From NCBI RefSeq assembly GCF_902652985.1, contig NC_047025.1:11718001-11782000 (forward strand): a stretch of DNA of 64,000 nucleotides. Reading direction: 5' to 3'. This DNA comes from Pecten maximus (Eukaryota). The notes below the pieces were generated by a model. The model ran no database searches. It saw only the letters and a list, made by a program, of their open reading frames with translations, and had not been told where the DNA came from. The position numbers and the translations under genes are program-made. Below are positions 15,001 to 63,828 of the stretch, piece after piece (the first letter of the stretch is position 1; the number at the start of each line of letters is the position of its first letter).

Positions 15001-17863
15001 AACCATACCCCAAAGATACATTCCCATTGACACAAGGGTTCATCATAGCCAGGGGGTGTGCAACTGACACTTTATTTGCCGATCAGTCCACCAAGATGGC
15101 CGCCATGGCCTCTGATTTCTCCAAAGTTAGATATTGCCCGATTTTGATGAAATTTGGTATGTAGGTTCATTATGAGCTACCGGCCACTCTCGTAACCTAA
15201 TTTTCATATTTTATCAAAATGGCCCCTTTTCCTGGCTTCTAATGGGTCAAAATTTAGATATTGTCCGATTTTGATGAAATTGGTATATAGGGATTTTGAG
15301 GGATGCCGAACACAAAAATACGACTGCCGGGGCGTTTAGGGGACTTTTGTAATGGTATCCTATTGCAATTAGTACTTGATATATTTGGCATGTACAATTT
15401 GCTAAGTCCTGTTCACTTGTGAGTCGCTTGTGCATTTCCATTATGGAGGGTGGTTAAATGAGGCAGAAGGAAAACAAGGAAACGAGGACGATATTTAGAG
15501 TGAACAACTAGACAGCTGTTTAGTTCAGGAAGACCTGAGTGAACTTTTAGAGATAAGACCGTGCAGTTTGATTCAGATTGGAAGTGGGAAGATTTAGAAA
15601 CTAAACATTGATATTATCTTCGTGCAGGTAAGTTGGCAATTTATTTCAACTTTCAATATTCAAACAGACGTGAGCATTATCTGTTTGATATTATCAATCT
15701 GACTTTTATATATTTAAGCATTAAAACTGAATTCCTTTTCGGGTAATATGAGGAAATATAAACGCAAATTGCAATACAGGAATATAACATAAACCACGTA
15801 ATTAATGCTTATATTTACATTTCCTACAGTGCCTAAGTGCATGAAAAAAAATTAATACGACAGAAAATAAAGTAAAGCCTCTGGAATTTTAAAGTAGCAT
15901 AACAGCCTATAGCGTATGCTTCTGTTCCCGAGACAGTAATTTTCACACGCTTTATCTTGGAGCTTGGACTTTAGATTACAGTCCATGGAACAGCTATCTT
16001 AAATAGCAAATAAATTTAAACCTTTACATATATTGTGCTGTTCTTGTCTAAATGTTCAGCAAAACCACAATTTCGATAATTACAGGTATCACTATCATTG
16101 ATCTATATAAATGAGATATTGTGTTTATTTCTTAATATTGAGAACACATGTTCAGTTAATTTGAAAACTGAGTGATGCAGTTGTCATCGAAAATATGTCT
16201 GCGTTGATTTGTTTGGTGAAATGATATAGAAATTGCTGTTATAAATTGCACTTTTTCAGACAATATAGAAAAAGAACTTGACATTCTCACAAACACCAAT
16301 GGCAGAGAGTTAGTTATCTAAAGCCTCTATATCTATCATGTCGGCACTTACCTTATCAATTTTTAAACAAATGTATTTATTGCAATTTCGCCAGTGAAAT
16401 ATAGAAATTTATCAAACTCATAAAACTTATATTTTCACTACAGCTATGAGCAGTGAAAAAATAAGATTTTGCAGTGAAAATATAAGTTTTTGACCAATCA
16501 GAGCTTACCTTTGTATTCACCTGAATGAGACGATTTTACCAGTCGAAGCGGAGATAGATAAATTGGTTATTTTGCTGTGTTTCTGAAATATTTTGACTAG
16601 TTTTTGACAAATTACTCACTTGACGTTAGCTTTTCATGGAAAAATTCTCCGATAACAGCAGAAAACGCTTAAATTGCGCTGATCAGTCCTTTCAAAATGG
16701 CGCCGTCAAGTTGACGTGGAATAACGTCACAAAGAGATGACGTCATTACTAATTCCCGCACTTTTTGACACTATTAATTTTCGATGTTTTCAATTTTGTT
16801 TTTAAGTATATGAAATGCAATAAAAAGAAAATCTAACATATATTACACTCGTATGACAGAATATTTCGATATTTTTCACTCGTGAAAATATCGATATTCT
16901 GACATACTCGTGAAATGTTATATCAAATGGGAAACAATTCAATATCCTCTATATATGTTTACAATATATAATAATTTCATACCCTATACAACTATTTATG
17001 AATTAAAATGTTTGCTATTACTGTGCCCTATTCGTCGAATTATAACATATATATATTTCATTTAATTTTTCACATGAAAAACCAAAAGGATAAGAAGAAA
17101 AAAATCATATATGTGTGTCTATGTGCACACTGCCATAGCTTTTCACTTGAAATCTGCTTTTTCAACGAATATTTTCACATCCTATGTAAAAGGTTGATAC
17201 TGTTTTGGAAGTAGAGAATCTTTGGGTGACATTAAACGTAATCTGAGAGAAATGGCATTGTTATTGAAAACATATCCAAGCATTTATGAATAACAATAGT
17301 TGCTCTTGCTGTGTCGTAATCGTGAAATGATAACATGTACATGTTTAATTTTACAATTGCACATTAAAATCCAAAAGGATTTAGAAAGATGGACAAAACG
17401 ATCTAAATCCTCTCAAGTGTTATATTTATATGTATTGTATGTGTGTACACTTATCAATTTTCTTTATGGTAGTGAAGTAGATATTTTTGCATAAATAGGC
17501 TGAAGTTATCTTTTCACCAGTAATAAAAATAGTGCTGATAACTGTACAACTTGGTAGTATTCACTTGTAAGTGCACTTTGACAGTTTAACAATATATGAT
17601 ACATCGTGCAATGTGCAAACGATGTGAAAGATGACATTAGCAATCTAATTATAGGGTTAAAGTCTCTGAGCACTTTCTATTGCAGGATATATAATATTTT
17701 GCACTTGTTACTTTGAATATTTCTGCTGGTTTTATTTTGTTAATGATGATTAACTAGTTTACACCAATATGGAGCCAGTATGTGAATAATTATTTGAAAA
17801 AATGAGCATATGAAATAGACGTGCCCTTTCTGTAATGAATTTTTTCATAAATCCGTTCACAGT

Positions 17864-19255
17864 ATGGCCGATATGACTTTAAGACGCATCTCGTTACTTC
17901 TGGCATGGATGGTCATTAGCTTTGGTCTAGCAGCTGGAGAAACAGATTCCAAAACGGTCGCCTCGCCTGAATCATCGAGGAATATCTCACCGTCTGTGTC
18001 TGATCTAATGAAACGCTTGGACGAAATGGAACGCCGCCATGATGATGACGTCAGTATTCTTCAAAGACGCATCGGCGCTTTGGAGAGTCAACACGCCAGC
18101 GATGTGCGACAAATGGGAACTCGCGATAACAAAATAAACAGTTTAGAAAATCAAATCAAACATCTTAACGGCCTGGTCAGTAAGCTTATTGGGAAACAAA
18201 AGTGGCCAGTGGAGAGTCTTAACAATGCGAGTGAGGATGGTCGAAAGGATGACACCTTTGACACCCACCAAGAAAGTAACAGTATGGATAGCCGAGGTAC
18301 AGACCCCGATAGCCAGAGCAGAATCGCCCGAGTGGGTAAGTAGGCTTTCTTGAAATTGTTTGATCTATTCCATTGATATTAATTTCATATATGACCAGTT
18401 AACTATATTTATAGAACAAGCTTGTTCACGGATGATTGAAGATAAAATATAGTTCGAGTATTATACACTTTATTTATGGAGAGAAATGAGATTACCCTAT
18501 ATCACGATTTACGATAATTGGTTACAACATGGTGGACATAAGATCTTATTTCGTCAGTCCATTCCCTTGTGTTATATGCAGAAAGATGTGTAAGGTTCTT
18601 ATGGAAATAATTCCTTTGTCGCCGCTCAGGTAGACTTGAACAGGACGCTGAAGATGGTGGTTAATCCTCAGCAACAAATTTTCAACTCTCTTTCTAACAT
18701 CTGCAAGCGTGTGATTCTGTTTGTCATATTTTGCCTGCGTATTATCGTTTTTGTGTTACAATTACAATTTCATTACAGTATTCTCTCACTGATTTCGGTT
18801 GACCTTTGGTCAAAAATAACTATTGTTATTCATCCATTGCAGCTACACCTGTCAATAACGGTATTGGTTTCCATGCCATTCTGGGACATGTCCTAGAAAA
18901 CCCTGGCCTTGGTCAAGCGATTCCCTTTCGTAATGTCATCACAAATATCGGTAATGCCTATAGCTCTAACACTGGGATCTTCCACTGTACCCAGACTGGG
19001 GTTTATTTTTTCAGTTTCACGTTGTCCCTATCCACAAATGAAAGGGTAGACGGACATATCAATAGGAATGGTCAAATGATATCTGCTACAACATGCGGGA
19101 ACGACTCTCACTGGAGTAGCTGCACAGGAACAGCCGTTGTTGAACTCTCCGAGGGCGACGAGGTTTGGGTAGTAATAGTCGTCAAACATCAATCATCTGT
19201 TCATCTGGAACCAGTATTTTCATTGTTTTCTGGTTTCCTACTTACCTATTCATAA
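17864..19255 (+). CDS. Secreted C1q-domain-containing protein (signal peptide + coiled coil + globular C1q), 294 aa; coding exons 17864-18335 and 18843-19255
   Basis: Exon 1 has a hydrophobic signal peptide and heptad-like LMKRLDEMERR..LENQIKHL. A phase-1 intron G|gtaagt ... ttgcag|CT joins in frame to FHAIL..IPFRNVITNIGNAYSSNTGIFHCTQTGVYFF..VVELSEGDEVWV..FSGFLL, a classical gC1q. An acceptor lies just before the ATG and AATAAA is at 19485. Confidence 0.93.
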
Positions 19256-20817: not shown

Positions 20818-23800
20818 TTAATCACATTGTAGGAAATTAGCTTTTACGTTGTGTATGCCCTTGCTTTGAATTGGACGATCATTTCCGAACATACGCAGGT
20901 AAGGGTGACCAATTTCAGCTGATTGTAAACCCATCAATACACGGTAACTCTGCAAAATATATATCAAAATACAATACAGTAACATGTTAAATTTAATGTT
21001 ATTTTAGTGTATTTGAACAATTAAAAAAGGAATAGAAACCTGCGTATGGTATCGCACGCAGATATTAGAATTAATATTACGCTTTAAAGCATTGGACTTC
21101 ATACACGTTCCATGATAAATCGTATACCCCATACTTGTAAGCGTTTTTTTTTTTTAGTTTTGTGTCTTTACTATGAAATGGATAACAAAATTATATTTTT
21201 TTCGTTTACAATCATATTTACCCGCCAGTTTATCACGAGTGGAACGTAACATTTGTATTGCCTTCAACAAGAAACTTTTTAATAAATGTATTTATTATGC
21301 AATACCAATAGATACATACCCTGTAACAAATCGTTGTCGGTGTGTTGTACACTACCCATATAACATTGGTGTTACAGGGAGGTGTTGTCTTGGATCCTTT
21401 GTATGTATAATATCTACCATCAGCCGGAAGTAAAAGACTGGGATTGACAAACGCAGGGTCTAAATATTATAAAAAAAAATGTCGTTTACATGTATATATA
21501 AATATTCTAAATCATAACATTCATATGTGTAAATTATGTTTATAACATTATTCTCTAAAAACATAGCTTCTTATTGATTATAAAATAGGCAAAATATTTA
21601 TAACATATAAAATCGTTGTACTTAGAAAGTATCAATACCGAAGCATACAGCATTGCTTCTTGGTTGTTTTTTTTTTTAAAGTTTATTCGGAATCCTTTAA
21701 TCTTGTTCATCATACTATATAACTGTAAATCACGTTGTGTTTTTATAAGCGGTGTCTAGTATTAATTCTATTAGGAGGTCTCGTGGTTCCCTTTAATTAA
21801 CTTTTATTCTGTCACCTATGTAAAAAGACACCCTTTCTCCTATTAAACCATAATGACGTATTGTGTTAATGATAACCTATTAATCTTTTTTATTTTTTTT
21901 TTTTTATTTTTTTTGAAAAGTATTGTGTTAATATGTTTCCTTTTACTTATAGTTGTATCTGAGCACTATTAGATTAAGTTGGATCTTAATCTTACTTACT
22001 CTTCACTGAAAGATATCTCCTTGTGTGTGACACGTAGTTCAATATAAGTCTATCCGCCTCTGTGTGACAGCGTCTAACTACCTATACAAATATAATGATA
22101 ACATGATATATAACGACGGCAACATCTTTATGACGACACATTGTTCTCAAACAACAATAATTAGATATACTAAAGTAACAACACACAAAAAACAGCACAA
22201 CTCAAAACTGCAATATATGCTTAAGTCGCACTAGATGGGTAAACATTTGAATAATTCAAATACACAATAACCATTCATTAATTTACGTAAAATTCGAAGT
22301 GGATTGAAATAAGACATATAATGAAGATATTTATGGAATAATTCTTGTTTTTAACGTTTACTGGTGTTGAATAACTGCATGCTTTTTACAGATGTTTAAA
22401 TGACGTTAGTGCGCCATGTTGAAATATCTGTAAAAATGCAGTTAAAACACCCGTAAACGATACAAAAAAATATTCCTTATAATAAATTTTTTTCAATACT
22501 TTCGTTAATTAAATCGGCATTCTTTCTTCGGCGTTATACTAATAGACGTAACAGACGGACAGTTAAAGGGATCGCTAGACAGCTGATACCAATTTGGCGG
22601 GAAAGGTCATCATCTACGGGAATAAACAAAACATATTTCCACAGTATCAATTTTTTTTATTAGATTCCTGTAAGATGTTTCAAACATTTCATTTTTCTAT
22701 CGTTATATTTTGTTTAAATCTACCATATTCAATTCATATATTTTTTTCAAAAAGTCAAAACAGAAACGAAAATATTCATTGCGCATTCACACAAATTGAG
22801 CAAGTGTGCACCGGTCTGGCTATGAGCATTGTATTCTTACGCGTCAGATGTTTACACACTTGTAAGATTATCAAGTTAGTAAGGAAAATAATGAAAACAC
22901 TCAGGATATGTAAATATTAAAACAAAAACCTGATCATGTGACAAGAGTTTATTATAATAATATACGGCACATGCTGATGTGTTCATGGTGTGGGTTTCTC
23001 GATTATTTCATCAATAGTAAATATATTTTGAGGATTTTTGTTGTCCTATCACAGGCGGTGTTTTAGCGAATACCGTTTAAACAAGGTTACCCGACGCCGT
23101 TTCCTGATCCAAATCAGTAGCCCGTATGCCCACTCCTAATATCAGTCGCCTGACTTACTCTCCTTAACATTGACCCAATCAAGGTGTTTATTGCTCTTTG
23201 GTGATTATTATTCCACTCGTGAACCAGGGCCTGCGTGGGTTGAGCGACATTATAAAGGTCGTTGTCGCGCTTCCTTGCTCGTCCCACCAATGCTCGATTT
23301 GGGACCAAGAACTGGAGCGTTGTTTGAAACAACCCTAGCAATATGGGGCCTCTCGTTGTCCTGCTGCAACGTTAGATTACGCTGATGGATAAGAGGAAGA
23401 ACGTGTAATCTCAAGACCTGATTCCGATATCCTATCGATTTAAGATTATCATGGATAAATACGAAAAATGTTTTCACGCTTTTATATATGTAACCCTGGT
23501 AAATACTAGCCGCAATATACCGCTCGGCTAGAGAGATCTTGTCTTTAGCTTGATCGGTTGAGCGTAAGACTAGTAAGCCAGAGGTCCCGGGTTCGATCCC
23601 TAGCGGAGGCAGTGATTTAAATTTAATTAATCCTGTGCTCTGTTACATATATCTCTGCCCAAAACATAACAGGCCCTTCCCCGAAACTATTGCTTTCCAT
23701 TACACAGGCGTCAGAATATCGCTTACCACGAGGTCAATAGACACGTTGTCGCCCATCCGAACTGCGAAGTGTCAGGCGAGACTCGCTAGTGAACAACGCG

Positions 23801-26800
23801 CGTCTCCAATGGGCCAAACGAAACCGATTACGTGTATGTGCAAGCAGACACTGAATTCGACGTTCGCGTCGCCTCTGCCAAACTGGCGGACCAACATAGG
23901 GACGCCGTGGCCTTCAATGAAACTCCTGTGAACGATTCCTAACTGTTCTTAGACACACTGGCCGACCATGAGTGCCGACACCCTGACGTACCTTCGCCGT
24001 CTGAAGTTGGTTACGGAGGTGCGAGAGACGTACAAATGTATTTCTCTATCTTGACGACGCGACGTAATGAGTGGGCGTCCGTTCTTAGGAAGGTCACCCA
24101 ATCTCCCCGTGGCTCTTAGACGCCCAACTAAACGGGATAGTGTTGTCTCTTGTACACGGTATTGCTGGGCTACGTTACGAGTGTCCCTGTAGTATCCCAG
24201 CAACGGCCCTACATCTATCGACTTCATTCAGTCGCGCCCCTTCGCTGTACAACCTCTTCGAAAAGAAATATTGTGTAACTGGTCTGTACTATCCTAAAGT
24301 TCTATCTGCAATGATTTACCGGTAAATATGGTGCAGGAGTACCCCGGATGCACGCTTATGATATGAAAACATGCAGCGTCGAGCGGGGTCAAGTTCGACT
24401 GAATTTTAATTGAAGAACATTTTCACAGTGCAGGGAGGTAGATCAGTGTGAGATTAAATTGAATCTAGACCACGTGTCTAACAGTTATATTAGAAAAACC
24501 AAACTTTTTCCCGCTAGTATATTTATGAACTATTTTTATCAAAGATAACAGGTTATATTTCAGCTCTACTTAAAAGAAGTTATACCGTCGACGGCATATA
24601 CATGTACACTACTTTTCACGACAATGCCTAAAATTACATCAATGATATAGAAATATAATCATCTTAGAAGTACCGACGAAACAGAGCAAAAAACTGAGAA
24701 GTTTTGCATTAAAAGTAATCACTCATAAGACTGGAAAGTGCATACCAACTTTTGGTGCTGTGAACTCGTTCGGAATGCAATTAATTGTTTATTCAAACTT
24801 GAGGTTTTTGTAGTAAAACCAATGTTTATGATATAATACTCACCACCATATAGATAATAGCGTATCGCCTCCGGCAGCCCATAATTTGCATAACAAAAAT
24901 GAAAATAAATATCCCGTGAGAGGACCCTTAATGCCCGATACGAACGCACCGCGCATGACCCAAAACCTCACTTCCGCAACCAAATAATTGGATGAGGAGA
25001 CGAGGGGAGGAGGGTGGGAACTCTAGTATATGGTGGTGAGTATTATATCATAAACATTGGTTTTACTACAAAAACCTCAAGTTTATTTCAATAATAGCTC
25101 ACCACCATATAGATAATAGCGAATTTGTCTTACCGTAGAGGAGTCTCCGAGGACAATGACCTCTTGAAAAGACCGCAACAAAGACATCAGTTAAAAACCC
25201 CTTAAGGGTCTGGGATATTTACAATAAAACTCTTTAAAAACAGAAACCGCAATGGAACCTCCCTAAGGATTGACTGGGGGACAAGTGACTGACTGAGCAG
25301 TGACAAGAGGACCCAGAGAATATAACCCATCTGCATGGGAGGACAGCGACCGCAGATAGAAGTCTGCAAAGGTGTTGCGGCCTCGCCAAAAGGCAGATGC
25401 CATGACCTCATCATATGAGGTTCCATTGAGAAAAGCCCAAGAGGCAGATAGAGCCCTGACTTCATGTGCCCTAACCCGAACACTGTCACGAGTCGTTGCA
25501 GTAGACCCCTCATAGGCTTTCTGAATAGTTTCACAGATCCACCTGGGAATAGTCTGAGAAGATATATCAGACTGCTTTGCCTTGATGGACAAGAACAGAC
25601 GAGGTCTAGGACCCTGCCGCCCCCCCTTAGTTTTATCAAGATAAAACTTCAAAGCCCTACAAGGACAAAGTAGCAGATCCTGATCATTGGGACCAGAGAC
25701 AGCCTTTAAGGCAGGAATCTTAATAGGATCTGGTGAAAAATTGGGAACCTGGTTTTTCGCCAAGAAGGAGGGGTCAGTGAGAAGGGTCACTAGGGAATAG
25801 TTACGTGACCACCTGAGACATGACGGAGAAGAAGAAAGAGCATGTGTTTCACTTCTCCGCCTACCTGAGGCAAGTGCAATCAGGAAAACAGTCTTCCAAG
25901 AAAGGAACTTAACAGAAGCAGAAGCCAAAGACTCATAAGGAGACCTTGTAAGAGAGTCCAAAACTAAAGCCAAGTCCCACTGGGGTGTCAAGATTCTTAC
26001 CTTAGGCTTCTCCAACGAAAAAGACCTGAGGAGATTAGAGAGAGTGGAACATGTTCCAACATCTGAACGACCCCGAAAAGAAAATACATTGGCTAAGACT
26101 GAACGATAGCCTCGAATGGTGCTAGGCGCTAGTTCCCTAACCTTAAAAAGGTAGAGGAAAAACTCCGCTATTAACTGAATAGAGGCACCGAGTGGATCAA
26201 TCTTCCTGCTGATACACCAACTGCAGAAGACTGACCATCTGGACTCATAGATGGCAGATGAGGAAGATCGAATAGATCTTGTGATGCCATCGGTAACTTC
26301 TGCAGAAAAGCCTGCCTGCAAGAGACAGACCGAGATAGCCTCCACGCGTGAAGGTGCAGGTGTTCCGGATTGGGGTGAAACTGTCTGGATTTGGGCTGGC
26401 TGAGGAGATTCCACCTGGCCGGAATGGCCAAGGGGAGATCTACCAGCAAATCCAGAAGAGCCGGAAACCAAGGCTGTCTGGGCCACAGAGGTGCTATCAG
26501 GAGAACCGAGCAATCGTGATTCCTGACCTTGTGAAGTACCCTGCCCAGGAGGTTGAATGGAGGGAAGGCATATGCCAGAAGACCCTCCCAGCTCAGGGAT
26601 AGAGCATCTACTTCCCAAGCCAAAGGATCCGGAACTGGAGACACGAACGTCTGAATCTGGAAATTCAGAGCTGTGGCAAACAGATCTACAAGAGGAGTCT
26701 CCCAAACCATGCAGATGGCCCTGAATATAGACCTGTTCAGGGTCCATTCTGTGATAACTGGACTCCGTGATCTAGATAGCGTGTCTGCTAAAACATTCAG

Positions 26801-29800
26801 GTGCCCTGGAAGATGCCTCACTGAGAGGGACAGACCCATATCCTGACAAAGAAGAAGAATCCTGATAGTGAGGGCACATAGCTTGTGAGACTTTGTACCC
26901 CCCTGATTCTCCAAATAAGCTACCACTGTAGCATTGTCTGTAGCCAGACAAATGGACTGATCCTGCAGCAGAGGCTGTAGGGACTGAATGGCTAGCAGAA
27001 CTGCTCTCATCTCCAGCACATTGATGTGTTCCTGGAGTTGAGCCCCCTGCCAGACCCCTGAACGACACTGACCGTTGAGGTAGGCACCCCAACCCGTCAT
27101 AGATGCGTCCGTATACAGAGTTACTGTAGGGGAAGCTCTCTGAAGAGAGACGCCCTTCAAAACATTGGCCTCCAAAGCCCACCACATGGCCGAGGCCTTG
27201 ACGGAAGCTTCCAATGGAATCCGAGCATCCCACTCGAGGGATGCAGGTTTCCATTTGGAAAGAAGAAACATCTGAAGAGGGCGAATATGGAGCCGACCCA
27301 GGGGTACGACATCCGAAAGGGAATTGAGGAATCCGAGAAGCCTCAGAAACCACCTGACCTGAATATAGTCCAGACTGTTGAGCAGAATAACCAACTCCTT
27401 GGCTTTCTGGAACTTGGACTGAGGAGGAAGAACGAGGCCCCGATCCGTAAGGAAACGGTTTCCCAGGAAAATGAAGTCCTGGGATGGAAGAACCTCGGAT
27501 TTCTCCCGTGAAGGGATAAAACCTAGGCGTAGAAGAGTTGTCAAGACCGACCTGGTGCTGCAACGCAGAGAGATTGGGTCTATATGCAGCATCAGGGAGT
27601 CGTCGAAATAAATATGGATATCTACTCCGCGACTGTGTAAATAGCCCACAACCACCTGAAGTAGCTTGGTGAACACCAAAGGGGCGGTGGTCAGACCGAA
27701 GGGCATGGCCTTGAACTGGAACACTCTGCCCTGAGAAGTGAATCTCAGGAATTTCCTGACCGATTTCTTTATCGGTATATGGAAATAAGCGTCCTTGAGG
27801 TCGATTGAGGTCGCCCACATACCTGGAGCTACCGAAGTCAAGATACTTCGAGGTGTCTCCATTTTGAAGTGTGGCGAGACTACATGCTTGTTGAATGCAC
27901 TGAGGTCTATAATCGGACGCCAGGCCCCGGATTTCTTCTTGACAAGAAACATCCGGGAGTAAAAGCCTGGAGTCCAGAGTGACCTTGGAAGCTCCTCCAC
28001 AGCACCCTTGGCTATCAAGGAATTGACCTCGTCTAAAAGGGCTTGAGCCTTCTCTACATCGCCTGGTGGAGGAAAGAAGATAGGGTCCACAGACAGAGGA
28101 GGATCCTTCAAAAGAGGAATACCTAGACCCTCGGAAACCACCGAAATTGCCCACTTGTCCTTGGTGAGCTCCTTCCATTCTGGTAGGAAGGAGGATAGAC
28201 GACCCCCGACGTGCAGATCTGGCTTTGGAAGCTGGAGACCTGACCATGGATCGTCTAATGGGGAGGACAAGTGACAATGAGGAACCGAGGGACTGCAAGA
28301 GTCAGGAACTCTGTCCCTTCTTGCTGGGATTCTTCTATCCACCCCTTCCTCCTCTGTGACTCTGACTGCCCCGACCCCGAGAAGAGTGCCCACCTCGAAC
28401 AGCCGAAGCTACAGGAGGCTGAGTCTGGGTCTGAGACTGAGTTGTCTGAGCACCCCTCTTAGGCTTACCTGGACGCTGCACCCGGCCAGGTTTAGGCTTA
28501 GCCCTAAGCTTCTCAAGCCTAGCTGAAGCCGCCTTGTCATTGTTGACTCGGTCCATGACAGAGGTGAGAATACCTCCAAACATTTCTGAGCCAGACAAGG
28601 GAGCAGTCATGAGATCGGAAATGAATGGCTCACCTACAGCTAGTCTGGGCTTCAGAACTGCTGCACGGCGGGCCAAAACAAAATCAGCAAGAACTGCCAA
28701 AATGAGCGCGGTTCCATCCATGTGGGCCCGGTTCATGGCCTTGCTGAGTTCAGCCAGAAGCTTAGTCTTGTTAGGTAGGCTCTCCTCAGAATGAGAAGAT
28801 GCTACGAACAAAGCAGAGGAAAAAGAATCTGCATAAGCCAGCACATGAATGGCAAGACGAAGCAGTCTTTCCATGCGACTATGCTCCTTAGGAGATAAAT
28901 GAACAATATCATTTGATCTCCCAGGCCAGCGATGGTCTAAGATAAGATCCACCTTGGCTGGAGTAGGTTCAACTGAGGAATTGTGCACAGAATATCGAGA
29001 AGGACTAAACCCCTCGATATCGCTAACCCCCAGAAGCAAACCAGAAAGATCCTGCTTTCTATTAGAAGAACCTTTGGCCTGCAGAACCTTTTCAATTTGG
29101 GCCAATGCTGAAGAGACCATAGTCCCTTCAGCCAAAGACCTACCTGATGCCTTAGCTTCTGGCTCCGAGGGAAGAAAGGCACTTAAAGTTGAAGTCCTTT
29201 CTGGGAGGCTAGAAGCAGAGGGAGGGGGACAAAATTCAACTCCCAAAAGGGAAGCAACCTCCAAACGAAGGCTACGAAAGGAATCAAGATTCCTCTCTGC
29301 CTGAAATGCAGCCAGACCTAAATCTGAGTCGGGGTTATCAGCCTCAGAGTGAAAAGACTCATGATCTGACCCCTCGGTAGGTACTGATGGGAGCCATGAG
29401 CGAGTCTCGGCATCCAAATCAGACCCAGCATCCAACGACAGAGTGTCCCCATCATCAGGCAAAGTCAGCTGACCAACATCCTCAGTCTCGGACTCCTCAA
29501 AATCCATATCCTCAGTCTCCTGAAGATCAGTTTGAGGAGACTGGCCAAAACTGGAGGTTGACCGAGACACAGTCTGGTCTGGAGCCTCCATTCTCCTACA
29601 CTTAGAAGCAGAAGAAAGGCCAGCACTAAGATGAGAGAAGTTGACTTTACGCTTAACCCTGCTGGGAAGCGATGACCTGGGAGTCTCAGCCAATGTCTTC
29701 GAGGGACGGTGAACCCTTTTAGACTTAACAAGGCGTGTGCGAGAAGGGGGGGGGGGGGGGGACCCAACTCAACACCTGACTGATTATAGACAGCTGAGGA

Positions 29801-32800
29801 AACCCAAGGTTGACCAGTGTAACCTGGAAAGGTTTGACCATACCCAGGGTATGGAAATCCCATAGACTGGGAGGGGCCCCAGTGTTGGCCGAAGCCAGAA
29901 TACTGGGGAGAAGGCAACATTCCGACACCCGCAGGACCAGGAAATGAATTGCCCCCTACTGGAGACCTGCCTGGCCAATATGGCTGAAAATGGCCAAAAT
30001 TGCCAGGAGACTGCAAACTACCACCTAACCCGGGTGCAGAATGAGGGTAGGGATAAGGTGGGGGATGCCCTGGAGCACCCATAAACCCAACTGAGCCAGG
30101 AGCTCTAACTGGAGGAGGACCAGATAGAGGCAAGGCAGACCTAGGAACCGACGGGTGCATAACCCCGGAACCCAAACCAGACTCAAAATACGGTAAACCA
30201 ACGCCTGGGAGTGAAACAGAGACACTCCCAGATCCTAGTGCAGCCTCTCCAGAACCACCGTAAAAACTGGCAGTACCAGCCGGCCTACTGTCAGTGGGTA
30301 CGCCGGCACCCCTCAATGGGGCCCGGGTCGCATGACTGGCCTGTTCGGTAACCATTCCGCTAACGGAGATGGTACCTGGACACTCGCTCCCTTCGACCTC
30401 CAAGGAGATTCCCGGGTGAGTGCCCTTCTGATGACCGATAGAACCCAAAGGCCCTACCGCCTCAGAAATATGTGTGTGAATAGGCTCCTCTGTAGCCAAA
30501 GAGTGCCTACCACCGTGAGACAAAATTACTTCCCCTTCAGGGGGTAAAAATGCCTCACTGCCAGGTGGGAGGCTGACAACAGCACCACACTGGACTTTAG
30601 GTTGACGTTTACTGTCTGCCCCAGACTTAGCACCCTTATTACGGGCGACAGACTGATGGGACAACACCCTGTCCCACAAAGTGTTTGACCATGTCAAACA
30701 GACGGAACACATGTTGTCCCGGGAGCAGCCTCGGCAGGTAGAACAGGTGTCATGGTCATCCCCATCGAGGATGACATGACCGCAGTCTCCTGACCGAGTT
30801 TTTGGACCCGAAGTAAGTCTCTTACCTCGCATTCTGCTAGGCGGGCAGCTTCCAGCAAACGAGAAAATCCAGCCAAAAAACGGAAGAAAAATCCACCGAT
30901 AAAATTACGGAAAAACGTCCCGTAAACTGGAAATAAGTACAGAAAAGTACAAAATGAAAAGGAAATAAAACAACTGAGTTGACAAAAGCAAAACGGTAGC
31001 AAATAAAGCGAGAAAAATAGACACCGAAGTGGTCTACTAGACCGCGGTACCGTAGCGAGACAGTCCACGTGTGCAGTAACCACTCGACAAAAAAGACGAA
31101 ATACGACACACAAACGGACTGACAGTTCAAACGAAAATGAAAAACTTGTCAACAAAGATGAGAATAACAAATTACGAAAGCAAAGCAAAAGAAAAACTAA
31201 TTAAATGCAACAAAAACCCTGGGAAAACGAGCTGTCGTCAAAATCCTTCTGGGATGATGGCTGCCATAAGCGGAAGTGAGGTTTTGGGTCATGCGCGGTG
31301 CGTTCGTATCGGGCATTAAGGGTCCTCTCACGGGATATTTATTTTCATTTTTGTTATGCAAATTATGGGCTGCCGGAGGCGATACGCTATTATCTATATG
31401 GTGGTGAGCTATTATTGAAATAAACATGGCTACAACTGAACTCAGCCGTAACGAAAATCATATTTGTCAATTTGTTCACCAGTCAGCAACAATTTGATAA
31501 GATACTGAATTTTACAAAACCAAAGCTACATTTATGTATGAAAAATGTAAAAATATGAATTTGCCCATGTACAGACACGGATATTAAACTTATAAGAAAA
31601 TACTTGATTTTACAACATTGATATATATATGTCATTTCATCACGACAATCAAACATTTTCATCGTTAGTATTATTACAAGATTCTTCGTACAACAAAGAC
31701 TCACATTGAAAAAGATCCCTACTGCTACCAAACCGTCTCTTGCTTGAGAACCTTCTTCAATTGTTCTCGACTCCTGTGTCCTCTTCCAATGAACCATGTG
31801 GATCTAGTAATATACAATTATAACATTGCTTATTTCATTGTAGCATTATTAACAGCAGGATGTACAATTACAGAGTCTTTTAAATGTACAACAAAAATTG
31901 TAAATTTCAAAGAACAATGCAAAACATTAGCGATGACACTTAATGACAGAGCTGAATTCAAGCCAAAACAAGTTGTTCCAAAAAGTGAAATGATTCATTA
32001 AAATCCTAGCAACAAGAAAGCACGTGCTCAGAGGTTTGTTCTTTTATAGAGAACAAAGTATATATAACAATTGTGTTAAAGCGTTAAACATGAGTGCAAA
32101 AAAATAGATAAAAAAACTAAGGCTTAAAATCGACGAGAAACAAAACAAAGCATAAAACAAAACAAAAACGAAAAACAATATCAATAGATAAACAAACAAA
32201 TGAAAAGCTTTTAAAAAGATAAATACAGAAATTGCCATACAGAACTTTTTCAAGATCTCCACGTTTAAGATGTTTATAAAAAATATACATGCTAATATCA
32301 ATAGTGTTATTTAATTTTATTAAAAAAGTAAAAGTAAAAAAGTAACAAAGACAAAAATACAGAATAAAAAAAAACTTTAATAGAAATAAGATTTTTTTTT
32401 TTTAATTAAATACATTTGAATTAGATATATATAATACCGATTTTCGCAATGAAATCTTCTGGTAAATACTGTTTGCGTGAACTGCAGTTTTTTTGTGCTT
32501 GGTATTCTAGGGAAAGTCCCGTGACTACGCCACTTCACCATTTTGCTAGTCTCTTTACATTAGTTATGCGACATGATATATACGTTTACAGTAGCTAAAT
32601 AAGAAAATAGAAAAAAAATAATAATAATGAAAATTGACGCCCTGTGTCTTTTAAACGTTAGTACCTCTCCTCTGAATCCCTTCCCATTGATCCGGTGTTC
32701 AGATCCTGTACGACTCCCGTTGGTACCAATGTGGAAATGGAGTTCCGAGAATACATAGTCAGTATCCTCGTGGTCTGGAACATTTCTCAGTACTTTTCCA

Positions 32801-35013
32801 TACGTGCGAACACCGCCGCGGTTTGATGGTGTAAATGTACTAGAATGACCTGTGCAAATTAGGAAGATTTTATATTTACCACGTGACCATTTTTAAAGAG
32901 ACTAAAGAACTAAATGGTCCCGTGATAATAACTGGTCGTATCGTGTTTCTATGAATTTGTTGTTTTCATCAAGATGGTTTTGGAAGATCAGGATATGTCA
33001 GCCATACAAACATCCTTACAGCAGTTAATTTTTTTTTATTTATTTTTTTTTTTTTTTTTTTGTCTTTGCAATAAAGTTAATAGCCAGTGAACATTGCCGT
33101 TACGTAGGCTTAAAATGCCCACGGTTGTCGAGAGACAATTAAACACAATCAATCAAGTAGAAAAAATGACACAACACATATCGTTTAAATCCCAAAATTC
33201 AAACCCAATAGAAACAAAAGAAAGATAGAAACAACCATCAATATTACAAGCAAAGGCAACAAGAATGCAAACAGAAGTAGCAGAATTACTATTTCATTCA
33301 TCAAATTGAAGTTGGATCGCAGAAGGAACAACGGTCTAACACACAAAATGGAAAGAACGTAACGAAAGGAACGTAACTGCCATAGTTATAACGTAAATGA
33401 GGTCAGGAAGAAACAGTGACCCTCGCACTTAAAACGGAAATGATGTCACGGAAAGAAAAGCAAACCAATGTAAAGAGCGGAAGTGAGGCTACATTAAGAA
33501 TATACAATGATAAGAACACTATCACGAGGAGAACAAATACACAAAAGACAGAGGGGAGGTCATGTGATCCAGACAGATGTTTGCAGCACGTGTGGAATAA
33601 ATCAATGTAAAAACTGAATTATGTCATTGATTATTTGACTTTTATGCTACACCAAAATACACATACGGTGGCTAATATTTGAGTACATTATAGTTCAGTT
33701 TTCATACTTATACGTACATGTATATGCAATCTTGTCTGATTTGCTTTCACCATATTCGTGTTCATGTATACTAATAAAGCAATGTGTTTCACAATACGTT
33801 GTACACATGGCGCCCAACTGAGTATCACTTTAAAATATAGTTTTGATAATAGATACGTTCTGAAAACGTACATATTTTAGCAGTATTCTTATTTTAGCGC
33901 TTTTCGTACTAAAAGCATTCCGCTAAATTATGATTCCGCTAATTGCACTTCCTATACACTTTTTCTATATAAAATCATTTGGTGCGCCAATTCACCAATT
34001 CGTTAATCTCTTCAATTCGGAGATTTGCTAAATTTGAGGGAGCCAACAAATACGTTTACGTTTATAATAGAACTGTTTCGTCTTTCTAAGATTCTTCTGC
34101 AACGCTTCAGAAGTTAAGAAATCCGGAAGAGAAGTTGAAAATCAAAAATGGAGAAGACATTATGTTAAAATATAAGGAACTAATATTCGACACAAACTCG
34201 GAAAACTTATAGATAAGATATGATATCTAAGTTACCGTTGTTTAAAAAGCTCCCTCTGACGTATCCATTCTGACTTCTATAATGGAGATATAAAGGAGAG
34301 TCGTCTTCTTCTGCAGATTCCCATGCACTGTACCCTATTAAGTCTTATATCGATAGGGCTCTGATGGGGTCCCTTGCACTCATTATAACACATCCGCCAT
34401 CTTCTAGGGCCTGGTGATGGTACAATGTAAACATTTTAAGACTTTTATTATATTTTCTAATGTAAACTCGCACTACCAAATATGTAATGTTAAAAATTGG
34501 TGTTTATATATGAAACATAATAATCTTAACAATGCAATACCCCCACCCCTTCTAAAGGCTACGCCATAAACCTGTATAAACTACAACCACAGCATTAATT
34601 CAACTTCATCCACAGAGCCTGCCTACATACACATACATGTATATACTTAGATAATCATCTAAAGTTGATCTGAATTACATCTTACCTTTAACATAAGCAT
34701 ACACAAAGTTTCATATAAAAGTGATAATTGATCGCAAAGACAGTCTATACATTTAACATTAAAAAGTAACAATTCTGCCACCCAATAAGAAATAAAGGTG
34801 ATCAACATGAGTATATAGAAAAACTCAAATGTGTTGAATATATAGATATAGAGCATTACCTATAGGCGAACGATTATCATAACTAAAGAATTGATGTTTC
34901 CTGACTTCTGAACATGATGCAAGTCCGGAGCTTGGAGGCCTTCTCGGAGACGATGAACAATTAACGCAGGAAAACAGCACAGAAATAATAAGAACTGTGG
35001 TTAGAATACCCAT
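20818..35013 (-). CDS. Secreted alpha-carbonic anhydrase (nacrein-like), 7 exons: 35013-34860, 34410-34236, 32849-32665, 31803-31705, 22081-22000, 21459-21320, 20949-20818; about 321 aa if one extra base in exon 2 is removed
   Basis: All introns are GT-AG with matching phases. The spliced product reads signal peptide-FSYDNRSPIGPRRW..C.G.HQSPIDI..NNGHS..ELHFHIG..GSEHRING..GEIHMVHW..DGLVAVGIF..LLP..YYTYKGSKTTPPC..VIWVV..GNDRPIQ. All three Zn-binding His are present. Exon 2 is 175 bp (needs 174), i.e. one +1 indel near 34320. Confidence 0.9.
23100..24300 (-). mobile_element. Degenerate Tc1/mariner-family transposase remnant (in carbonic anhydrase intron 4)
   Basis: ORF fragments RNVAQQYRVQETTLSRLVGRLRATGRLGDLPKNGRPLITSRRQDR (HTH + GRP motif) and YRNQVLRLHVLPLI..LQQDNERPHIAR (QQDNAxPH catalytic motif). 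Broken by frameshifts and an insertion; TIRs not identified. Confidence 0.8.
23489..23647 (+). mobile_element. 159 bp solo-LTR-like element (TGTAAC...GTTACA, 4 bp TATA TSD) containing a tRNA-like (Thr-AGT-like) sequence
   Basis: Inverted 6 bp termini, with tata at 23485-23488 and 23648-23651. Internally there is an A box (tagcttgatcgg), an anticodon-like loop ctAGTaa, a B box (ggttcgatccc) and a 3' cggaggca at ~23541-23611. Confidence 0.7.
24839..24977. repeat. DIRS 3' inverted terminal repeat (with extension 24795-24838)
   Basis: Reverse complement of 31270-31408. Confidence 0.95.
25027..25121. other. DIRS internal complementary region (ICR)
   Basis: 25027-25084 is the reverse complement of 24795-24852, and 25082-25121 is the reverse complement of the right terminus ending 31424. 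The two halves overlap at TTT (25082-25084), reproducing the circle junction. Confidence 0.95.
25263..26747 (-). CDS. DIRS tyrosine recombinase (YR)
   Basis: Core-binding region (IYESRWSVFCSWC..LAPSTIRGYRSVL) and catalytic R (ASGRRRSE), LCPCRALKFYL, HxxR (RAHEVR), W and Y (FWRGRNTFADFYL). Confidence 0.93.
   Translation of the reverse strand: MDPEQVYIQGHLHGLGDSSCRSVCHSSEFPDSDVRVSSSGSFGLGSRCSIPELGGSSGICLPSIQPPGQGTSQGQESRLLGSPDSTSVAQTALVSGSSGFAGRSPLGHSGQVESPQPAQIQTVSPQSGTPAPSRVEAISVCLLQAGFSAEVTDGITRSIRSSSSAIYESRWSVFCSWCISRKIDPLGASIQLIAEFFLYLFKVRELAPSTIRGYRSVLANVFSFRGRSDVGTCSTLSNLLRSFSLEKPKVRILTPQWDLALVLDSLTRSPYESLASASVKFLSWKTVFLIALASGRRRSETHALSSSPSCLRWSRNYSLVTLLTDPSFLAKNQVPNFSPDPIKIPALKAVSGPNDQDLLLCPCRALKFYLDKTKGGRQGPRPRLFLSIKAKQSDISSQTIPRWICETIQKAYEGSTATTRDSVRVRAHEVRALSASWAFLNGTSYDEVMASAFWRGRNTFADFYLRSLSSHADGLYSLGPLVTAQSVTCPPVNP
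26171..28393 (-). CDS. DIRS pol: reverse transcriptase + RNase H + DNA adenine methyltransferase-like domain
   Basis: RT motifs WRPIIDL, IDLKDAYFHIPI, MPFGL, YFDD. RNase H motifs YTDASMTGWG, HINVLE, TDN, NVLADTLSR. MT motifs VDLFA and YAFPP. The ORF begins at a GTG, so the true start is uncertain. Confidence 0.95.
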   Translation of the reverse strand: MGTLLGVGAVRVTEEEGVDRRIPARRDRVPDSCSPSVPHCHLSSPLDDPWSGLQLPKPDLHVGGRLSSFLPEWKELTKDKWAISVVSEGLGIPLLKDPPLSVDPIFFPPPGDVEKAQALLDEVNSLIAKGAVEELPRSLWTPGFYSRMFLVKKKSGAWRPIIDLSAFNKHVVSPHFKMETPRSILTSVAPGMWATSIDLKDAYFHIPIKKSVRKFLRFTSQGRVFQFKAMPFGLTTAPLVFTKLLQVVVGYLHSRGVDIHIYFDDSLMLHIDPISLRCSTRSVLTTLLRLGFIPSREKSEVLPSQDFIFLGNRFLTDRGLVLPPQSKFQKAKELVILLNSLDYIQVRWFLRLLGFLNSLSDVVPLGRLHIRPLQMFLLSKWKPASLEWDARIPLEASVKASAMWWALEANVLKGVSLQRASPTVTLYTDASMTGWGAYLNGQCRSGVWQGAQLQEHINVLEMRAVLLAIQSLQPLLQDQSICLATDNATVVAYLENQGGTKSHKLCALTIRILLLCQDMGLSLSVRHLPGHLNVLADTLSRSRSPVITEWTLNRSIFRAICMVWETPLVDLFATALNFQIQTFVSPVPDPLAWEVDALSLSWEGLLAYAFPPFNLLGRVLHKVRNHDCSVLLIAPLWPRQPWFPALLDLLVDLPLAIPARWNLLSQPKSRQFHPNPEHLHLHAWRLSRSVSCRQAFLQKLPMASQDLFDLPHLPSMSPDGQSSAVGVSAGRLIHSVPLFS
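26772..28298 (-). CDS. 508-codon ORF overlapping pol in another frame, in frame with YR (probable N-terminal extension of the YR ORF)
   Basis: Same frame as 25263-26747, separated from it by one TAG at 26772-26774. Ser/Gly/Arg-rich, no recognisable domain. Confidence 0.5.
   Translation of the reverse strand: MQSLGSSLSLVLPIRRSMVRSPASKARSARRGSSILLPTRMEGAHQGQVGNFGGFRGSRYSSFEGSSSVCGPYLLSSTRRCREGSSPFRRGQFLDSQGCCGGASKVTLDSRLLLPDVSCQEEIRGLASDYRPQCIQQACSLATLQNGDTSKYLDFGSSRYVGDLNRPQGRLFPYTDKEIGQEIPEIHFSGQSVPVQGHALRSDHRPFGVHQATSGGCGLFTQSRSRYPYLFRRLPDAAYRPNLSALQHQVGLDNSSTPRFYPFTGEIRGSSIPGLHFPGKPFPYGSGPRSSSSVQVPESQGVGYSAQQSGLYSGQVVSEASRIPQFPFGCRTPGSAPYSPSSDVSSFQMETCIPRVGCSDSIGSFRQGLGHVVGFGGQCFEGRLSSESFPYSNSVYGRIYDGLGCLPQRSVSFRGLAGGSTPGTHQCAGDESSSASHSVPTASAAGSVHLSGYRQCYSGSLFGESGGYKVSQAMCPHYQDSSSLSGYGSVPLSEASSRAPECFSRHAI
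28335..30832 (-). CDS. DIRS gag-like ORF1, split by a frameshift at a 16-base homopolymer (29746-29761)
   Basis: ATG at 30832 with a Cys/His cluster CGH..HDTCSTCRGC..CSVC, then a Pro/Gly-rich region. The downstream frame (28335-29693; helical domain, basic RGG tail) is open back to the C run; 14 or 17 C would fuse the two. Confidence 0.8.
31270..31424. repeat. DIRS 5' inverted terminal repeat and terminus
   Basis: 31270-31408 is the reverse complement of 24839-24977; 31409-31424 is matched by the ICR. Confidence 0.95.
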
Positions 35014-38037: not shown

Positions 38038-38246
38038 ACTGCTAATGTACTTTATTTGGCGCACTCAAATTTAAGCGCATGTCTGAATTTGTATAGATTA
38101 GCGCATTGATAAATTCGTGCGCCAAAAATTTATGTAGAAAGAGTATATAGAAAGTGCTATTAGCGCAATAATAATTTAGTGGAATGCTTCCACCGCAAAA
38201 AGGCGCTGAAATAAGATCACCGCTAAAATATGTACGATTACAGTAA
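38038..38246. mobile_element. Short TA-flanked MITE (related decayed inverted copy at ~33858-34060)
   Basis: tactg...cagta termini; internal sequence matches the reverse complement of 33866-34000. Confidence 0.55.
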
Positions 38247-38379
38247 CTATTGATATATTCTTACTGATGTCATTACTTCCTTATATGGTATGATGATGAT
38301 ATTAATGGTTATGCAATTATTGGTTACATAAATTACTTACGATGTCCGATAAAGAGGGAAAGTATGATAACTAGTAGTA

Positions 38380-40910: not shown

Positions 40911-40924
40911 ACAAAATCACCGAA

Positions 40925-42022
40925 AATAGGGGGGAAATCGTGTCTTACTAAGTTACCCACATTGAATCTGAGTGAAAACAACTTGTGACAAATCAACAAT
41001 TATACACTATTAAAATTGTCTCCGCTCCGCTGTCTGAACGAGGCAAGCAACAGGGTACTTAACATTGGGCCGTATTCATGGACTCGTCAAACATCCTCTA
41101 TACTAAATATTCTTTAACCTTAATCATTAATCGACCATTCTGCACACTGAATTACACGTATAACTAGACACAAAATATTGTCAACGAATTGGGATGGATA
41201 TTAACAGTGGACGATAACATTGGCAAAGTTGGTCTTGTAAAGCTAACTGAAAATGGTATGTCTCTTGTCATCTTCTTTCTTAATCTCGGTGTTTCTGACC
41301 TTATCGTTGGGGAAGATGTTTTCTTAATATGGTTTTGACTTGCGTTATGTCCCTTTTAAATGCGATTGTGAAATATAACCTTTTTTGCAGGAGGCTGGAT
41401 CTGGCTTTCAAACTCTAATATTATGGAGATTATATAATGAACAGATGAAATGCTTATATACAGAACAACTTAAGAATCAATCAATCCGTCGACTTTTGCG
41501 GAGTAATCACTAAAATAATTTTATGTGTGATATACCACGAACTGAAGGATGTCCTTACGATTGTAATTGAAATAAACAGCCAAGCAGACACCACATGGTC
41601 GTAAATTGCTCCGAGCATGAAATTAACATAATGCCAAAATAGGTTCTCATCTCGACAAAAACAACCTGTCCAGCTTAGAGTGGCGAGGATACCTTAACGA
41701 AACACGGAAGTTAGTCTTATCCAACAACTCTATAACTACGATGGAGGGACGTGCTGTTAATCAAATACAGAATGCAACGGAAGTAGACTTACGGGGAAAC
41801 ACGGAATTCAAGGATCTACCAGTAGATATACGTTACTTGAAACGAGGCATTTTCATATTAAGCAAACTTAACGTTGCATGTGTTAAAAAAGTGGTTTGGA
41901 GAATGGATCAGAATGACTAAGATTCAAAACGAGACACGAACAACTTTTGGTGTCAGATTGAAAACAGCGCTATGAAGGCTCCTGAGGTCATACTACAAGA
42001 TATCGCTGATGCTGCCAAAGTA

Positions 42023-42054
<32 letters not shown>

Positions 42055-42122
42055 GTTTCTCGAAATATTGTTAGCACTTGTCTTGGGCGATTCGTTAATC
42101 ACGAAGGTATTTAAGTACGAGT
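40925..42122 (+). pseudogene. Toll-like receptor copy C, heavily decayed ectodomain-to-TM fragment (no TIR)
   Basis: Nucleotide homology to copy D from cgtgtcttactaagtta (SCLTKL) through gaaggatgtccttacgattgtaattg, a near-identical block at 41670-41840, to aaggtatttaagtacga (KVFKYE). Numerous indels and a poly-T/poly-G insertion. Confidence 0.85.
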
Positions 42123-42449
42123 CTGTATTATTTCTGGCCAAAATGTATATAATTTCAGCCGTGTACAAATCCGGCATGAGTTTCATCAAGGGTCCTGCTG
42201 GTTGAAGTTCAAGTTCAGATAGTGTTTCCTCTGTCCCTAACACTTGATGTTAGATATTTAGGTGGCCAAACTCGATATCTGTTGGTCAAAATGTTTAACG
42301 TCTATTGTTGACAGGTAGGGAAATATTTTATTGATGGAAAAAGTATAACAGTTTGAAATTTACTTTTCATTTATAAAAGTACATTAGTTAACGATATACA
42401 TGTATCAACGTAGTGGATCGAGAATAAAACTAAAACTGTTGAATCAAGA

Positions 42450-62476: not shown

Positions 62477-63828
62477 ATGGTGCTGGTGTTTGATGCAGAT
62501 GAAAACAACTTGGCCATTTGTGCCATAGTTACTGTTGCTATGCAGTTCACTTTTTTTCTGGTGGCATGTACCTGTAAATTTGACAAAGTGACAGACTTTG
62601 CTGGGGGTACTAACTTTGTAGTTTTAGCCTTACTTACCTTTTTGCTAGCACAGGTAAGTGTGACGACTTTTTATTTTTAATTTACTAGAATTTGAAATGA
62701 AACACTGTTTATCAAGCAAAAAGTCTGTATCTATTGTTCCGCAATAAGCCCACCTACTTAAATTCCTTGCATTGCCCCACCCCTCCAATCCTAGGAGTAT
62801 TCCAGGATAAATATGATTATGATTTTATCAAAAAAAAAATTATATTTAAATTTCTTTTTTTCTATTTAATTTTTTCATCAGATTTATTATAGCCGACAAT
62901 TACAATAGAATCACATTTCTGAATAATAAATGCGTCCCAATTAGATCAACTTTCAAATAAAAGAATGGAGAAAACAATTGGGAATAACTCTAGAAAATTA
63001 TTAATTAAAATTCTATTTAAAGTACATTAAGTATATTTCTACCACAATACCCTGTGTTATTCAACTCTCAGACCATCAGTTAATCATTACAGCTGTTGAT
63101 TAACAATCTGTTTATACCACACATTTCGATTGGCTAACACGGTGAACTTTGACCCAAGCTGCAATTGTTATTGACGTCATCAATAATCTAATGACGTCAC
63201 ATCACCGGGTCCCGGACGTCACCGGTACACTTTATTTGCATACGCAAAATTATACTTGGCCACGTTTCCTTTTGATTCAAGCCGATATTATTGTGGTAGA
63301 AACAGGTCACATGACTCGAAATTGTTGGATATGGAATTTATTTCACACTCGTAAGTTATTTTTTAAAAGTTGCAAAAAACACTTGCTAAAGCTTGTGTCT
63401 TTTGTAACTTTTAAAAAATAACTTACTCGTGTGAAATAAATTCCATATCCAACAACCACTCGTTGTGTAACCTCTATTTATACAATGATAATAAAAACAA
63501 ACAAGCAAAGTTTTAAAGAACTATCTGAAAGGTCATTCAAAACTGAGAAGAGCAACATGTAAGTTTTATGTCAAATTTTAATGGAAATACATGTATATTA
63601 ATTTTAATGGAAATACATATGCATGTGTATTGAATGAGTTAGAAGTTCAAGTGTTTTTTTTTTCAGACCTACAATTGGAGACAGGTATGTGTGACCGTAT
63701 TTGTGTGTATCTGGGGTATAAGGCTGTCCGGGTACCTTCTATACAGAATCATCAAAATAGGAGAGGATAAAAGATTTGATGACAAGCGAGAAAATTGTGC
63801 TGCATTTGCTGGGTTCTGGACATTTCAG
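62477..63828 (+). CDS. DUF1295 / steroid 5-alpha-reductase-like membrane protein, first two coding exons (62477-62653, 63667-63828); continues beyond the window
   Basis: Phase-0 GT-AG intron. The product [65 protein letters not shown] carries the DKxTD, WGxRL..YLxxR and GEDxRF motifs of DUF1295. An acceptor at 62449 implies an upstream UTR exon. Confidence 0.88.
63282..63478. repeat. Hairpin-forming interspersed repeat (intronic), related decayed copy at ~52705-52890
   Basis: ttgttggatatggaatttatttcacactcgtaagttatttttaaaagtt is mirrored at ~63407-63455; shares ttgtggtagaaacaggtcaca with 52705. Confidence 0.65.

Follow-up and report, generated by a model that had tools for sequence, protein, structure and literature searches.

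Described counterparts of the gene reported here include human carbonic anhydrase (CA) III, with Phe198, and engineered variants of human CA II at Leu198 and Val143, which share with it a changed pocket mouth over a preserved catalytic core, and the nacreins (Pinctada nacrein, Crassostrea F1/F2 and P0211), which are molluscan alpha-CAs and secreted, as the product of this gene probably is. The gene, an alpha-CA, lies on the minus strand, from 35013 to 20818, of a stretch of 64,000 nucleotides (nt) of the scallop Pecten maximus (RefSeq assembly GCF_902652985.1, contig NC_047025.1, positions 11,718,001 to 11,782,000), hereafter called the window. An earlier note, made by a model from the letters alone, had described it as a hidden, seven-exon, nacrein-like CA with a remodelled CO2 pocket. 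Residue numbers are those of human CA II, which is consistent with an alignment to human CA VII.

Phe198 of CA III is associated with lower activity and with a block to aromatic sulfonamides (PMC10128460). In human CA II, L198E is among the changes that cost a few- to 20-fold; a drop of 1e4-1e5 requires a bulky residue that displaces the deep water (PMC7642793). Nacrein-like proteins have been defined by an insert in the CA domain and by four motifs, QSPIN, GSEHS, PMEA and YTYxGSL(T/S)TPPC (PMC4066178); mussel members (NACR) are without the insert, and membership there is by clade (PMC6639325). Papers and supplements are cited by PubMed Central (PMC) number.

Against this background, we hold with moderate confidence that the window gene is the P. 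maximus member of a fast-evolving family of secreted scallop alpha-CAs with a conserved set of substitutions (Lys198, Ala143, Glu92 and Ile97), that its product would be a working but slower enzyme, and that the species keeps a working allele. CA III differs from it in being cytosolic and in carrying Lys64 and an aromatic residue at 198.

Active site, fold and probable activity

The codons expected for His64, His94, His96, Glu106, His119, Ala143, Lys198, Thr199, Cys203 and Trp209 were all found in place. The zinc ligands (His94, His96 and His119), the gate residues Glu106 and Thr199, Glu117 and the shuttle residue His64 are retained, as the earlier note had reported, and Thr200, Val121 and Trp209 are likewise retained in the orthologue group; every catalytic position is kept in the window gene and, over the regions covered, in its orthologues. 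The canonical hydrophobic pocket (Val121, Val143, Leu198, Val207 and Trp209) keeps three of its five residues, the deviations being the Leu198>Lys and Val143>Ala changes that had already been recognised. A remodelled pocket is borne out to this extent; the weight earlier placed on Ala143 was overstated, since V143A in human CA II brings only a loss of about 2-fold (PMC6158936). Two more substitutions are present, Gln92>Glu and Trp97>Ile, and the second-shell change at 97 could affect zinc affinity.

A structure model of the intact orthologue from Ylistrum has a mean predicted local distance difference test score (pLDDT) of 89 and matches CA XIII and CA II with Z about 32 and a root-mean-square deviation of 2.1 A over 256-261 residues (261 for CA XIII). 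The hydropathy of the predicted window protein peaks at residues 1-19 and a C-terminal hydrophobic tail is absent; both Cys23 and Cys203, the disulfide pair of secreted CAs, are encoded.

A quite different product can be imagined, namely a near-inactive, basic, secreted matrix or binding protein in which zinc would be structural and the pocket plugged by Lys198. In its favour, residue 198 can crowd the pocket when its side chain is long, for which CA III is a precedent (PMC10128460), the predicted isoelectric point (pI) is about 9.5, and mussel nacrein-like proteins without zinc ligands are nevertheless abundant in mantle (PMC6639325). We nevertheless think it highly unlikely. Non-catalytic CA-related proteins are recognised by the loss of at least one zinc histidine, whereas all three are present here together with His64 and the whole of the set listed above, and it is a bulky residue at 143, rather than a smaller one, that the severe losses in CA II depend on (PMC7642793).

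By analogy with the CA II variants, then, a working but slower secreted enzyme is most likely. It would act extracellularly, binding zinc and hydrating CO2 through the usual zinc-hydroxide mechanism, with an efficiency perhaps 3- to 30-fold below that of a Leu198 version, and would bind aromatic sulfonamides more weakly. Nair and Christianson are said to have found in 1993 that Leu198Arg loses about 17-fold and that its side chain is mobile. In structural terms, the methylenes of Lys198 would replace the leucine wall, Ala143 would create space on the floor of the pocket, and the amine of Lys198 would be directed to the mouth, near an acidic residue at 92 or 91 that could neutralise it; in the window gene, Glu92 may cancel its charge.

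Distribution and history of Lys198

The earlier note had treated Lys198 as more than a private mutation, and this stood. Both orthologues that were found, Mizuhopecten yessoensis P0007 and Ylistrum balloti P0008 (79% and 75% identical to the window gene, respectively), keep GSKTTPP and Ala143, and Lys198 is therefore a conserved lineage feature; Glu92 and Ile97 are also the same in all three orthologues. Profile and homologue searches further recovered Lys198 in scallop paralogues of Mizuhopecten (P0048), Ylistrum (P0049) and Argopecten (P0199), and in a group of oysters and pearl oysters (Ostrea P0196, Saccostrea P0198, Pinctada P0201, P0068). The Pecten paralogues have Ser (P0197) or Thr (P0200) at this position, and Mytilus P0202 has Val.

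These two groups resemble the window gene in different ways. The scallop paralogues (P0048, P0049, P0199, P0197 and P0200) form its sister group in the tree and share Ile97 (5/5), Glu92 (4/5) and Lys198 (3/5), but are only 36-42% identical to it, have lost His64 in four of the five, carry acidic inserts and include a shell-proteome member with Ser198. The oyster and pearl-oyster proteins have Lys198, Asp91, full zinc ligands and His64 in 4/4 and Ala143 in 3/4, but are 33-36% identical and constitute a separate clade. The three orthologue entries (P0006 in P. maximus, P0007 and P0008) carry automatic names, and no study of these proteins was found.

A census covered 77 domains (15 bivalve, 62 non-bivalve) belonging to 69 organism-named hits. 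Lys198 occurs in 9 of the 15 bivalve domains (one being the window's own RefSeq fragment, with two gaps), a share that is inflated because one homologue search was seeded with Lys-bearing sequences. None of the 62 non-bivalve domains has it: 53 have Leu, 6 are gapped, and Phe, Gln and Met occur once each, so that Leu198 is present in 53 of the 56 that align. That GSKTTPP is uncommon in characterised CAs, as the earlier note had supposed, thus holds as far as it was tested; literature searches (on the motif, pocket mutants and mollusc or scallop CAs, with subscription papers outside their reach) returned no description of a GSKTTP motif or of a natural Lys198 class among the listed matches, and a protein atlas search returned generic arthropod CA clusters only. 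Within the census, whose rows are kin and not independent, an acid at 91/92 accompanies 7/8 Lys198 domains versus 14/60 others, and Ala143 accompanies 6/9 versus 8/60. An acid at 92 is already present in the non-Lys sisters of both clades (Asp in P0057, Glu in P0202), which would fit a permissive step for Lys198.

With position 198 masked, IQ-TREE analysis of 39 rows recovered a scallop clade (94/85) with the Leu198 protein P0057 as its sister (100/99) and, separately, an oyster clade (100/97) with Mytilus P0202 as its sister (100/99). A clade of the 12 scallop and oyster rows alone, a group defined after seeing a tree, was rejected (p 7e-6), and with it a single Lys198-only clade is ruled out; the same rows together with the two sisters were not rejected (p 0.15). 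On these sequences, either two gains of Lys198 or one old gain with reversals would account for the distribution. Earlier trees, census and fold on larger row sets gave the same picture. Lys198 is also found in P0053, one domain of a 2519-aa multi-domain protein without zinc ligands, and in P0302 (219 aa); given these two, it may have arisen elsewhere too.

The maintenance of Lys198 across three scallop genera and its recurrence in a second clade, with the Lys-only clade rejected, are what one would expect if it were an adaptive cationic site that tightens the binding of bicarbonate or other anions and lowers the pKa (acid dissociation constant) of the zinc water, so that the enzyme suits shell mineralisation, an explanation that takes up the suggestion of the earlier note. 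T200H in CA II, which raises bicarbonate affinity, is a precedent for a cationic residue nearby (PMC6158936). One origin with reversals was not rejected, however, and the charge is perhaps cancelled by Glu92. Moreover, under the Haldane relation an enzyme cannot favour one direction of an equilibrium; tighter bicarbonate binding could shift the Michaelis constant (Km), pKa and product release, but not that direction. Together with the shell evidence below, this leads us to regard the adaptive explanation as unlikely and to prefer a working but slower enzyme.

Gene model and the frameshift in exon 2

A six-frame motif search and exon assembly gave seven exons and six introns, all GT-AG (12/12 canonical splice dinucleotides), with intron lengths of 449, 1386, 861, 9623, 540 and 370 nt (Table 1). 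The alpha-CA family PF00194 was matched by four of the five exon peptides tested, and each of the seven exons aligns to the intact 319-aa P0008 at 52-89% identity. The seven-exon gene across a 9.6-kb, transposon-filled intron that the earlier note had assembled is thereby upheld. It was not hidden, since RefSeq already annotates exons 4-7, including the splice over the long intron, as P0006, a 148-aa 'carbonic anhydrase 7-like' protein whose sequence equals residues 174-321 encoded by the window gene, with 100% identity over the exon-6 peptide. P0006 begins at the first Met past the break in exon 2, the expected outcome of a frameshifted transcript model, and the frameshift is why exons 1-3 are missing from RefSeq as coding sequence.

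Read from the homologous acceptor at 34410, exon 2 is one base above a multiple of three, and PRRW..C..QSPID and the ..NNG that precedes His64 are encoded in different frames, both of which are matched by P0008 in one intact frame. When every single-base position was scored against P0008, the surplus base was best placed at 34319-34318, followed by 34317-34314 and 34322-34320. The homologous reading thus ends early, as a 95-aa product, and the exons and introns of the earlier spliced model stand but its intact reading frame does not; presumably, a downstream acceptor was used or the shift was overlooked. We also considered, and rejected, a small intron hidden within exon 2 whose removal would leave QSPID as well as NNG in place: the QSPID-preserving GT/GC-AG pairs excise 10-79 nt, the longer ones deleting orthologue-matched coding sequence, and one surplus base suffices.

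An open seven-exon frame of 296 aa, from ATG to stop, is obtained only with a downstream AG at 34334 (or nearby, such as 34343), and a shortened P. maximus isoform that bypasses the shifted part of exon 2 has been weighed accordingly. Such an isoform would lose Trp16, Cys23 and QSPID, all nearly invariant across 50 aligned rows; its acceptor has a pyrimidine share of 0.50, the lowest of 8 compared; and the bypassed segment is still 74% identical to the orthologue. Rescue by this acceptor strikes us as very improbable.

The frameshift is the sole lesion across 967 coding nt, and the window gene has an end branch of 0.03 in the tree versus 0.13 and 0.14 for its two orthologues. A single lesion, canonical splice sites throughout, the per-exon identity to the orthologue and the short end branch all argue that the lesion is recent or an artefact, with a null allele or an error in the consensus as its probable origin, not old decay. 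The codon at the surplus base is Gly in Ylistrum and Glu in Mizuhopecten, and the merging of two such alleles into one consensus could create an extra base. We place a consensus error first, at slightly less than even chances, and a segregating null allele not far behind; a fixed recent pseudogene is improbable. Most likely, then, a working allele is still present in P. maximus.

Several observations weigh against a conserved enzyme with a working allele in this species. The P. maximus assembly received two Arrow and three Illumina polishing rounds, at a heterozygosity of 1.71% (PMC7191990), which makes a plain error less likely, and the long retroelement open reading frames (ORFs) and one full Toll-like receptor (TLR) gene in the window stay open. 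RefSeq left the frame uncorrected. The Mizuhopecten model P0007 likewise has a truncated N-terminus: its first residue is the Met whose counterpart in Pecten directly precedes the frameshift. The homologue searches yielded neither an Argopecten orthologue nor a complete P. maximus protein; intron 4 holds a young 6.6-kb element; and the exchange of Lys198 for Ser or Thr in the Pecten paralogues is equally compatible with drift at the site.

Taken further, such observations could mean that constraint on the CO2 pocket is relaxed in the family, with Lys198 as tolerated drift, and that the window gene lost its function recently and is fixed in P. maximus as a pseudogene. The frameshift and the young retroelement, annotations truncated in 2/3 orthologues, variation among the paralogues at 64 (His, Phe, Arg), 198 (Lys, Ser, Thr) and 207, and several broken TLR copies nearby would all agree with this. 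Set against them are the single lesion, the shortest branch of the three orthologues and the identity of Lys198, Ala143, Glu92 and Ile97 in all three at 75-79% overall identity, and we judge this combined explanation doubtful. The conserved, probably slower enzyme remains the reading that we prefer.

Table 1. Features of the window, numbered from its first nucleotide
Feature	Position	Strand	Remarks
Exon 1	34860..35013	-	ATG, hydrophobic signal-peptide-like N-terminus, Tyr/Trp5-equivalent region
Exon 2	34236..34410	-	175 nt, surplus of one base; Trp16, Cys23, QSPID in one frame, NNG in next
+1 frameshift site	34314..34322	-	Short G and A runs directly after Met codon
Premature TAG in shifted frame	34279-34277	-	
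Exon 3	32665..32849	-	His64, Glu92 (for Gln), His94, His96, Ile97 (for Trp), Glu106, Glu117; PF00194 match
Trp97 site	32739-32728	-	Ile in all scallop-clade members and P0057, Phe in oyster clade
Exon 4	31705..31803	-	His119, Val121, Ala143; start Met of RefSeq partial model
Ala143 codon GCA	31725-31723	-	Exon 4
Intron 4	22082..31704	-	9623 nt, GT-AG; identical splice in RefSeq model P0006
DIRS1-like tyrosine-recombinase retrotransposon	24784-31428	-	Same strand as CA gene, about 69% of intron 4
Inverted terminal repeats of element	24839-24977 and 31270-31408		139 nt, perfect
Internal complementary region of element	about 25027-25124		
RT/RNase H ORF of element	26171-28408		Open
Recombinase ORF of element	25263-26771		Open
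Exon 5	22000..22081	-	Orthologue identity 89%
Exon 6	21320..21459	-	GSKTTPPC: Lys198, Thr199, Thr200, Cys203, Val207, Trp209
Lys198 codon AAG	21391-21389	-	Exon 6
Exon 7	20818..20949	-	Asn244/Arg246 motif, stop codon
Candidate polyadenylation hexamers	about 20723, 20693, 20673	-	
C1q-domain gene	17819-19255	+	Two parts; adjoins CA gene 3' end
TLR copies (LRR + TIR)	1-1870	-	Single exon
	8631-10833	-	Single exon
	40923-42145	+	Single exon
	46788-49007	+	Single exon
	53334-55451	+	Single exon
Similar short stretch in three TLR copies	about 482, 41848, 54688		Off receptor frame
Inverted pair	33853-34046 and 38056-38250		About 200 nt, 78% identity; one arm in CA intron 2
Hydrophobic exon-like ORF	62336-62680	+	

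The length of intron 4 is due to the retroelement and is ordinary. Besides the features in Table 1, the element has two more open ORFs upstream and matches RVT_1, RNase H and, weakly, integrase-SAM (E 0.003). We take it to be DIRS1-like from the anatomy of that family (RT/RNase H, tyrosine recombinase, inverted terminal repeats and an internal complementary region). It looks young, being apparently intact and recently inserted, is present as a single copy within the window and may be polymorphic among animals.

Elsewhere in the window, one of the five clustered TLR copies is intact, one is open to the window edge, a third is shifted by one extra base near 10166, and the other two are heavily lesioned. 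The short stretch shared by three of them lies at the same place in each, on the other strand or in a shifted frame, as part of the duplicated unit. The C1q-domain gene has a signal-peptide-like start and a coiled-coil-like middle; the inverted pair is probably a dispersed repeat; and the hydrophobic ORF presumably resembles the DUF1295 or steroid-reductase-like family.

Nacreins, the shell and the meaning of the variant

The label 'nacrein-like' was rejected on insert and motifs. The window gene matches 0/4 of the nacrein motifs exactly, reading QSPID, GSEHR, RGEI and GSKTTPPC, and no insert splits its CA domain: the spacing from His119 to the 198 loop is 78, versus 197 in P0211, and GxN repeats are absent. 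The missing insert alone is not decisive, because mussel NACR are also without it (PMC6639325). The tree weakly groups the window gene with P0211, the one insert-bearing nacrein-like row (88/81, unstarred), Pinctada nacrein being outside the tree. Apart from this affinity and its probable secretion, the gene differs from nacreins in being without a Gly-X-Asn or acidic insert, PMEA and the GSL/TS-TPPC form, with 26% identity over the first aligned block.

The shell proteins of P. maximus include 2 CA entries among 46, TR52216, which corresponds to the sister paralogue P0197, and a 1401-aa protein (supplement of PMC5854119); one TR52216 peptide is exact in P0197 and the other has a single Asp/Asn difference. 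P0197 has Ser198 and Arg64; the other Pecten paralogue, P0200, has Thr198 and Arg64 and is without the usual C-terminal motif. Both paralogues are placed on a contig of 44,189,035 bp, which is also the length of the contig that bears P0006. Motifs of the window gene are absent from the same supplement, which is weak evidence because only observed peptides are listed there. The shell connection drawn by the earlier note thus holds for the CA family through P0197 only, not for the window gene; that members of the family help to handle carbonate in the mantle or the shell space is plausible. For the adaptive explanation of Lys198, a shell matrix protein as sister paralogue is a favourable point, yet that shell-occluded protein carries Ser198, and a motif search of a pearl-oyster and oyster shell-proteome supplement (PMC6231486) gave 7 GSLTTP and 0 GSKTTP. 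GSKTTP was also not found in the portion searched (6,378 characters) of the supplement of PMC8382897.

A broader proposal, to which we give little credence at present, is that pteriomorph bivalves evolved, possibly twice, secreted CAs in which an ion pair between Lys198 and an acid at 91/92 would form a charged gate over a pocket widened by Ala143. Such a gate would adapt the enzymes to the space where shell forms by changing pKa, anion binding or the substrate (bicarbonate release, or hydrolysis of esters or phosphates). It would also confer resistance to acetazolamide, with which the part played by CAs in calcification is probed.

The finding is that of an active-site variant of a well-known enzyme, in a copy that is broken as assembled, and it carries a lesson for annotation in that a single base truncated the RefSeq model. 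Lys198 CAs are apparently an undescribed natural active-site variant of alpha-CAs. Should Lys198 enzymes prove resistant to sulfonamides, they would escape notice in inhibitor studies of how bivalves calcify. Leu198 is among the most constant residues of alpha-CAs, and its charged replacement, kept in scallops as well as in oysters and pearl oysters, amounts to a natural experiment on a position so far approached through mutants of CA II.

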